Below, piece after piece: positions 7,447-7,887 of a DNA stretch of 64,000 bases. The DNA lies in assembly GCF_016026235.1 (NCBI RefSeq), contig NZ_CP065613.1. One strand, given 5' to 3'. Position numbers and translations under genes: made by a program. The first letter of the stretch is position 1, and each line of letters opens with the position of its first letter. A model generated the notes under the pieces. It made no database searches. It was not told where the DNA came from and was given only the letters and a program-made list of their open reading frames with translations. The stretch is from Escherichia coli (GTDB lineage Bacteria; Pseudomonadota; Gammaproteobacteria; Enterobacterales; Enterobacteriaceae).

Positions 7447-7887
7447 GATACCCTTCAAACCAAATCTACCTTCACCCCGTCAAAGATGGGTTTGGCAGCA
7501 CATTTGCCTTATATCTACTCATTTTTACTGCAACAGGTTGAAATCTCAGCACTGTCAGAAAGTGCTGATGACTAAACAGCCCTGGGCCGGGCGATGTAAC
7601 CATCACACAGAATCCTGATAGCGAAATATGGCGTGACTCGATACTTCACTCCGCAATGCATTCCTTGATGAATTCGCAGGCCCGTGATACACGGGAAAGG
7701 TCGCTGAATGACGACAATGTCCTGGAAATCAGCGAACCGTGTATCCGGAGTACATTTGAGCGACTGTACCAGAACATGAATGAGGTGTTTGGATTAGGCG
7801 ATTATTAGCAGGGCTAAGCATTTTACTATTATTATTTTCCGGTTGAGGGATATGGAGATATCGACAACAACCGGAAAAAGTTTACGT

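Follow-up and report, generated by a model that had tools for sequence, protein, structure and literature searches.

The 441-bp spacer between argW and cscB in Escherichia coli is a composite scar containing a DUF4942 pseudogene fragment

Escherichia coli strains carry alternative gene sets beside the tRNA gene argW, with csc in most B1, D, E and EHEC strains and dsdCXA in K-12 and UPEC. This argW-dsdCXA/csc variable region was reportedly described by Jahreis et al. in 2002 and by Moritz and Welch in 2006, both cited by later papers. The replacement of dsdCX by csc at the argW hotspot is well known, and argW is described as a recombination hotspot in papers that do not dissect the 441-bp spacer lying between it and the csc genes (PMC11251922, PMC3032704, PMC4366372). 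Islands of the P4/CP4 type, which target tRNA genes, have a DUF4942 gene at their integrase-distal end; when intact, this gene closes a module that reads GTPase (YeeP), DUF932, antirestriction, RadC, DUF987, CbeA, CbtA, DUF5983, DUF957, and DUF4942. In the Shigella SRL island, the DUF4942 gene is orf56 of 59 and is homologous to L0010, while the integrase is orf1 (PMC6980539). A further residue known at this tRNA gene is pawZ of K-12, the argW 3' fragment at the end of CPS-53, which like the spacer as we read it is debris of a past integration at argW. However, pawZ is an att-site duplicate, whereas the spacer has no such duplicate and instead keeps an internal fragment of an island gene.

We analyzed a 64-kb stretch of E. 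coli DNA, referred to here as the window, which shares its locus and gene order (argW, cscB, cscK, cscA, cscR, truncated dsdX, dsdA) with the variable region. Within the window, yfdC (6364-7296, plus strand) is followed by argW, the 441-bp spacer (7447-7887), cscB, cscK, cscA, and cscR, the left boundary of the spacer being the 3' end of argW. A spacer 100% identical to that of the window is present in strain FDAARGOS_943, in the layout argW, scar, cscB, cscK, cscA, cscR, truncated dsdX, dsdA, and emrY. The spacer is a composite, three-part scar (Table 1), nonfunctional, of an ordinary evolutionary kind and not a working element.

Table 1. Features of the argW-cscB spacer and its neighbors, in window coordinates
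Feature	Position	Strand	Evidence or remark
argW, tRNA-Arg(CCT)	7372..7446	+	ARAGORN; Rfam tRNA 63.4 bits
Segment found in csc haplotype only	7447..7496	.	50 bp; no match outside this locus
DUF4942 (PF13708; L0010-like) pseudogene fragment	7497..7819	+	DNA alignment, tblastn, Pfam, neutral divergence
8-bp-stem hairpin	7546..7568	.	Allele-specific; within pseudogene
50-aa ORF with coding-like tail	7656..7808	+	Frameshift-derived stop codon
csc module 3' flank, downstream of cscB stop	7820..7887	-	Citrobacter amalonaticus homology; stem-loop 7835-7845 / 7868-7878
cscB, sucrose permease	7888..9135	-	Right neighbor of scar

The first-pass annotation, made from the sequence of the window, had described the spacer as free of open reading frames (ORFs) of 60 aa or more and had pointed to a coding-like peptide at about 7715-7806 as the C-terminal end of a lost gene. 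The longest ORFs between argW and the cscB stop are indeed 52 aa (7417-7575, plus strand) and 50 aa, and the peptide is present as VLEISEPCIRSTFERLYQNMNEVFGLGDY with its stop codon (7719-7808), forming the tail of the 50-aa ORF. Its resemblance to coding sequence is beyond chance. The 50-aa ORF matches the Pfam DUF4942 profile at 27.4 bits (E 3.1e-6, profile positions 18-62 of 190), the gathering cut-off being 25 bits, and a tblastn search with an intact, full-length member of 281 aa (WP_073521347, plasmid CP010123) aligned residues 73-151 to 7563-7799 at 52% identity (E 4e-21), with a weaker colinear piece (residues 38-65) at 7513-7596 in a different frame. When aligned as DNA to the intact gene of locus L004 (8776-9621), the spacer has continuous homology over 7497-7819, corresponding to codons ~32-160 of a gene of ~281 codons, with several deletions within 7568-7600. 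The TAG at 7806-7808 arose from two indels near 7800 (1 bp inserted, 5 bp deleted), and homology extends past it up to 7819, with CAGGGCTAAGC aligned to CAGGGGACTGAGC (R-G-L-S). The annotation was therefore right about a lost gene but not about its C-terminus; the remnant is an internal piece, truncated at both ends, with ~120 C-terminal codons gone.

Intact DUF4942 members are ~281 aa long (~260-285 aa), carry the domain at residues 87-275 and match profile positions 1-189. The remnant covers about a quarter of the domain and, despite a profile match above the cut-off, has no complete domain in an intact ORF, its frame being interrupted by stops and frameshifts; it is a pseudogene fragment and not a DUF4942 member gene. 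The DUF4942 identity of the remnant is already known from its RefSeq label. No intact relative that emerged from an exhaustive HMMER search exceeded ~55% identity, the 78-aa conceptual translation retrieved same-locus fragments only in a word-indexed protein search, and a peptide-pattern scan of genome contigs with the remnant fragment gave no match. NCBIfam holds no model for the DUF4942 family.

DUF4942 being an integrase-distal island gene, the earlier suggestion that a mobile element left a remnant at the tRNA junction holds up. Compared with the island DUF4942 genes (L0010 of the O157 LEE island, SRL orf56, and WP_073521347), the remnant is homologous over codons ~32-160 at 52-55% amino acid identity, and like them it adjoins a tRNA gene and reads away from it. 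Unlike them, it is frameshifted as well as truncated at both ends. The scar also differs from intact islands in having no companion genes (cbtA/cbeA, DUF5983, DUF957) and no integrase, so that only a fragment of the last gene of the distal module remains at argW. There is no integrase ORF between argW and cscB, no other island gene survives in the window, and a search for attR found the 25-nt 3' end of argW only once in the 64 kb (with up to three mismatches) and no direct repeat. The scar is at most an island relic, not a present-day island.

K-12 without its CPS-53 prophage has the argW 3' end, a 95-bp spacer and then dsdC, and bears no similarity to the csc haplotype from the first base after the argW end at 7446. 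We infer that the two haplotypes diverge exactly at the tRNA 3' end because of site-specific integration of an island at argW, neither the integrase nor the attR of which survives. The first 50 bp of the scar scored no higher than shuffle means against the K-12 argW-dsdC spacer, the 5' part of DUF4942 or the spacer upstream of DUF4942. This segment was found at this locus only, in 2,630 E. coli genomes, phages and plasmids having no copy independent of it, and is possibly the tRNA-proximal end of the lost island.

At the other end of the scar, the boundary is set by comparison with two Citrobacter amalonaticus genomes (L017 and L023), in which a csc module cscR-cscA-cscK-cscB, 80-83% identical and in the same gene order as in E. 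coli, occupies about 6320-11320. There the module sits between yjfF (of the ytfQRT-yjfF sugar ABC transporter genes) and a methyl-accepting chemotaxis gene (MCP)/fbp, and its flanks contain no tRNA, integrase, DUF4942 or other mobile-element genes. Homology to the window runs from cscR to 7832 / 7820. As DUF4942 homology ends at 7819 and csc-module homology starts at ~7820, the junction lies at 7819/7820. A junction at 7808/7809, where the homology of an enterotoxigenic (ETEC) locus, L003, starts, was ruled out, the remnant running to 7819 and 7808 being the target (TTAG) of the insertion sequence ISEc46. The flank at 7820-7887 is kept in L003, where everything left of 7809 is replaced, and in a divergent Escherichia strain (L016) considered below. 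These results clarify one boundary at a well-studied csc/dsdCXA locus, with the csc block ending at ~7820 and abutting older island debris, a refinement that matters little.

The csc flank also contains a stem-loop (7835-7878; minus strand, 9 nt beyond the cscB stop), which falls within the Citrobacter homology. Its 11-bp stem, TTTTCCGGTTG ... CAACCGGAAAA, folds at -17.1 kcal/mol (z -3.7), with 0 of 200 shuffles as good. Across nine E. coli alleles, the divergent Escherichia and C. amalonaticus, the loop varies but the stem sequences do not, and neither strand has a U-run after the structure. It is possible that this stem-loop is a cscB 3'-end or terminator element.

The 441-bp scar occurs in 2,644 of 5,426 complete E. 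coli genomes, on the chromosome in every case, and scar and cscB together, at at least 80% coverage, in 2,631 of the 5,426. The first-pass annotation held that its mobile-element idea would fall if the region were conserved in all csc-positive genomes and had no homology to coding sequence. The first part of that description comes close, the scar lying beside cscB in ~99% of csc-positive complete genomes, but coding homology exists, and the mobile-element idea is not refuted. Among the exceptions, strain H90 (O157) matches only query bases 1-116 and has a RefSeq carbohydrate kinase gene under the match; match and annotation together suggest a deletion running into cscK. Scar and csc are essentially inseparable, the exceptions that we looked at being secondary events, and the scar can serve as a neutral and almost perfect marker for the csc haplotype. 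The same arrangement (prophage-attR, scar, cscB, and on to dsdA; 11296-11512 in L016) is found in SCPM-O-B-8794 (L016), an Escherichia diverged by ~10%. Its scar is ~170 bp shorter, lacking 7533-7592 with the hairpin and 7713-7832 with most of the ORF and its stop, and keeps the stem-loop. That L016 shares the arrangement indicates that the csc haplotype is old or has crossed lineage boundaries.

Selection on the scar was assessed in nine E. coli alleles. Mean pairwise divergence was 5.6% over the whole scar, being highest in the first 50 bp (7447-7496; 9.2%) and reaching 5.3% in the DUF4942 remnant and 4.0% in the csc flank, as compared with 6.5% at 4-fold degenerate sites of cscB and 0.9% at cscB codon positions 1+2. 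Variable sites in the frame of the remnant number 8, 11, and 10 over codon positions 1, 2, and 3, with no position bias. Additional in-frame stops are present in Y5 and RMDEC465, and the alleles differ further by scattered indels of 1-11 bp. The scar drifts at about the synonymous rate, with no purifying selection on the reading frame.

We conclude, with a probability of roughly 0.8, that the scar is a neutral composite relic of a decayed island gene joined to the csc 3' flank, with the following history. A P4/CP4-type genomic island would have integrated at argW by site-specific recombination, after which deletions would have stripped the integrase, the cargo and most of the distal module, leaving codons ~32-160 of the last gene. 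An illegitimate join at 7819/7820 would then have fused this relic to a csc block of ~6.4 kb, which would also have taken the place of dsdC and of the 5' portion of dsdX. The resulting haplotype, of single origin, may have spread in Escherichia both vertically and through homologous recombination in the core genes on either side, and the relic would meanwhile have gathered substitutions, indels and stops at the neutral rate. Prophages of the IntS type would have inserted at argW later, leaving the scar untouched. Several observations weigh against this history. The window has no integrase, other island gene or attR repeat, the 50 bp next to the tRNA have no match by which to place them at an island end, the closest intact relatives of the remnant are only ~55% identical, and the scar is never found without csc, which fits island decay before csc arrival as well as after it.

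A related proposal, raised in the first-pass annotation, is that the element itself delivered csc to the tRNA site. The DUF4942-bearing island would have carried csc as distal cargo, and later deletions would have removed the rest and fused cscR to dsdX. Linkage and orientation allow this: scar and csc are almost never separated, the remnant points from the tRNA toward csc as a distal island module would, and the left junction falls exactly at the tRNA end. There is also precedent for cargo to the right of the module, kps genes following it in L005. Were it true, nothing but the scar would remain of the vehicle to which about half of E. coli owe a haplotype that is sucrose-positive and D-serine-negative. 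However, C. amalonaticus has csc with the same 3' flank from ~7820 at a locus that has neither island genes nor a tRNA near it, the E. coli block ends on the right within dsdX and not at an att site, and the search of the window found no attR. On these three grounds we argue that csc moved as its own ~6.4-kb unit. A single origin of the haplotype explains the linkage equally well, and we regard delivery of csc by the island as rather unlikely, although it is the alternative that keeps the most weight.

Far less probable is that the 50-73-aa ORF encodes a real small protein, a domesticated DUF4942 fragment, a reading that is already largely refuted. It has in its favor the Pfam score above the cut-off and the RefSeq/PGAP annotation, which in many genomes lists a nonpseudo CDS of 34-73 aa under a separate WP_ accession, named "DUF4942 domain-containing protein" or "hypothetical protein". 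That annotation is inconsistent, the pseudogene fragment being left unannotated in many other genomes. Moreover, about a quarter of the domain is present, the start position varies among strains as does the length of the ORF (34-85 aa), stops interrupt it in Y5 and RMDEC465, and most of it is deleted in L016. There is no excess of variation at codon position 3 in its frame, and it diverges at the synonymous rate. Returning to the composite relic as the preferred reading, the 34-85-aa "DUF4942 domain-containing protein" CDSs that RefSeq places at the scar are pseudogene fragments. We also observed that in some assemblies the remnant from ~7596 onward is fused to unrelated upstream sequence (L014 1-330, at a contig end of Logan SRR23081432; P0015 and P0020). 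The N-terminus of P0015 is RnfA-like, and P0020 is a variant ORF with a differing N-terminus at a contig end. These fused ORFs are probably contig-end or chimeric assemblies, or mark another insertion inside the scar.

The first-pass annotation had also drawn attention to an 8-bp-stem hairpin at about 7545-7567 as a feature of the junction. The hairpin, TCAGCACT-GTCAGAA-AGTGCTGA, is present with an offset of one base, and in principle it or the whole scar could be a functional RNA or DNA element, such as an argW terminator, a small RNA or a recombination site, lying as it does 100 nt downstream of a tRNA gene. The local fold has a z of -3.0, with 3 of 200 shuffles as good, and a perfect 8-bp stem with a 3-10 nt loop arises in only 4.3% of shuffles of the 441 bp; as the 64-kb window contains 46 such hairpins, this one is only marginally unusual. 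The hairpin has no T-run, being followed by TGACTAAACAG, was not picked by a scan for Rho-independent terminators and has no Rfam match, an Rfam 15 covariance search of 7000-8200 at E up to 1 having returned only the tRNA and a subthreshold chance match on the tRNA itself. It lies over EISALSES inside the pseudogene, and the DNA alignment shows that the intact gene has an imperfect palindrome there, so the hairpin derives from coding sequence. The stem is perfect only in the allele of the window, a rare one to which 10 of the 2,644 genomes are at least 99% identical. It has one internal mismatch in O157, Y5, KY1497, and 683R2, is broken by four mismatches in the 536, DS566-1, and E2348/69 alleles, carries a 6-bp deletion in RMDEC465 and is absent in L016, with no compensatory changes among the alleles and deletion in two lineages. 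The hairpin is therefore not a meaningful junction feature, and we give a functional element in the scar very little credence.

Least probable of all is that the scar was left behind by the IntS-type (CPS-53 / P22-like) prophages that commonly use argW, since these insert between argW and a copy of its 3' end with all 441 bp intact downstream, the matches to the scar in the phage collection are four records that are all of the same locus (ON470594, ON470589, ON470608, and ON470622), the one inspected carrying host csc DNA, and DUF4942 is an island gene and not a phage gene. The O157, K-12, and L016 prophages all lie between argW, which is the attachment site of the IntS type, and a 15-21 nt copy of the argW 3' end. 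Those of O157, KY1497, E2348/69, RMDEC465, and L016 leave the downstream scar intact, indicating that the scar predates the prophages and is not their remnant.

The inspected record, ON470594.1 (L007), is deposited as the "complete genome" of Escherichia phage vB_EcoP-683R2, an argW-integrating P22-like phage, and one of its ends carries the scar and the whole of cscB-cscK-cscA-cscR. This means either that the ends assigned to the prophage fall within host DNA or that the genome is of the specialized-transducing type, in which case it could move csc.

In the ETEC locus L003 (NZ_LR882990.1, 5796-8079), a 94-codon intS fragment whose last bases are TTAG is followed by ISEc46, an IS200/IS605 element with TnpB, and then by the sequence from window position 7809 on. 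The same ISEc46 copy is present in O169:H41 ETEC genomes, and 7809 is preceded by TTAG in other strains, which suggests that ISEc46 is specific for a TTAG target and that an IS-associated deletion removed the prophage and most of the scar. The integrase fragment of L003 might have pointed to a CP4-like island at argW, but this reading was ruled out, the fragment being IntS of the common, later prophage and L003 a secondary, ISEc46-associated deletion.

Elsewhere in the csc block of the window, an IS4 copy of 1,426 bp (10118-11543; transposase ORF 10184-11530) interrupts cscK between codons 5 and 6, flanked by a 12-bp target duplication, ATACTTTGGCTG, at 10106-10117 and 11544-11555. The insertion severs cscK and the downstream cscB from their start codon and promoter, so the strain is probably sucrose-negative. 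In RMDEC465 (L010), IS4 is apparently inserted at the same cscK site, though the csc allele is only ~94% identical. At the other junction of the csc block, ~190 bp (14251-14441) separate the end of the Citrobacter csc homology (14251) from the retained 3' part of dsdX (ORF 14441-14659). Rosenbergiella species have a cscB that is ~62% identical, in a rearranged locus.
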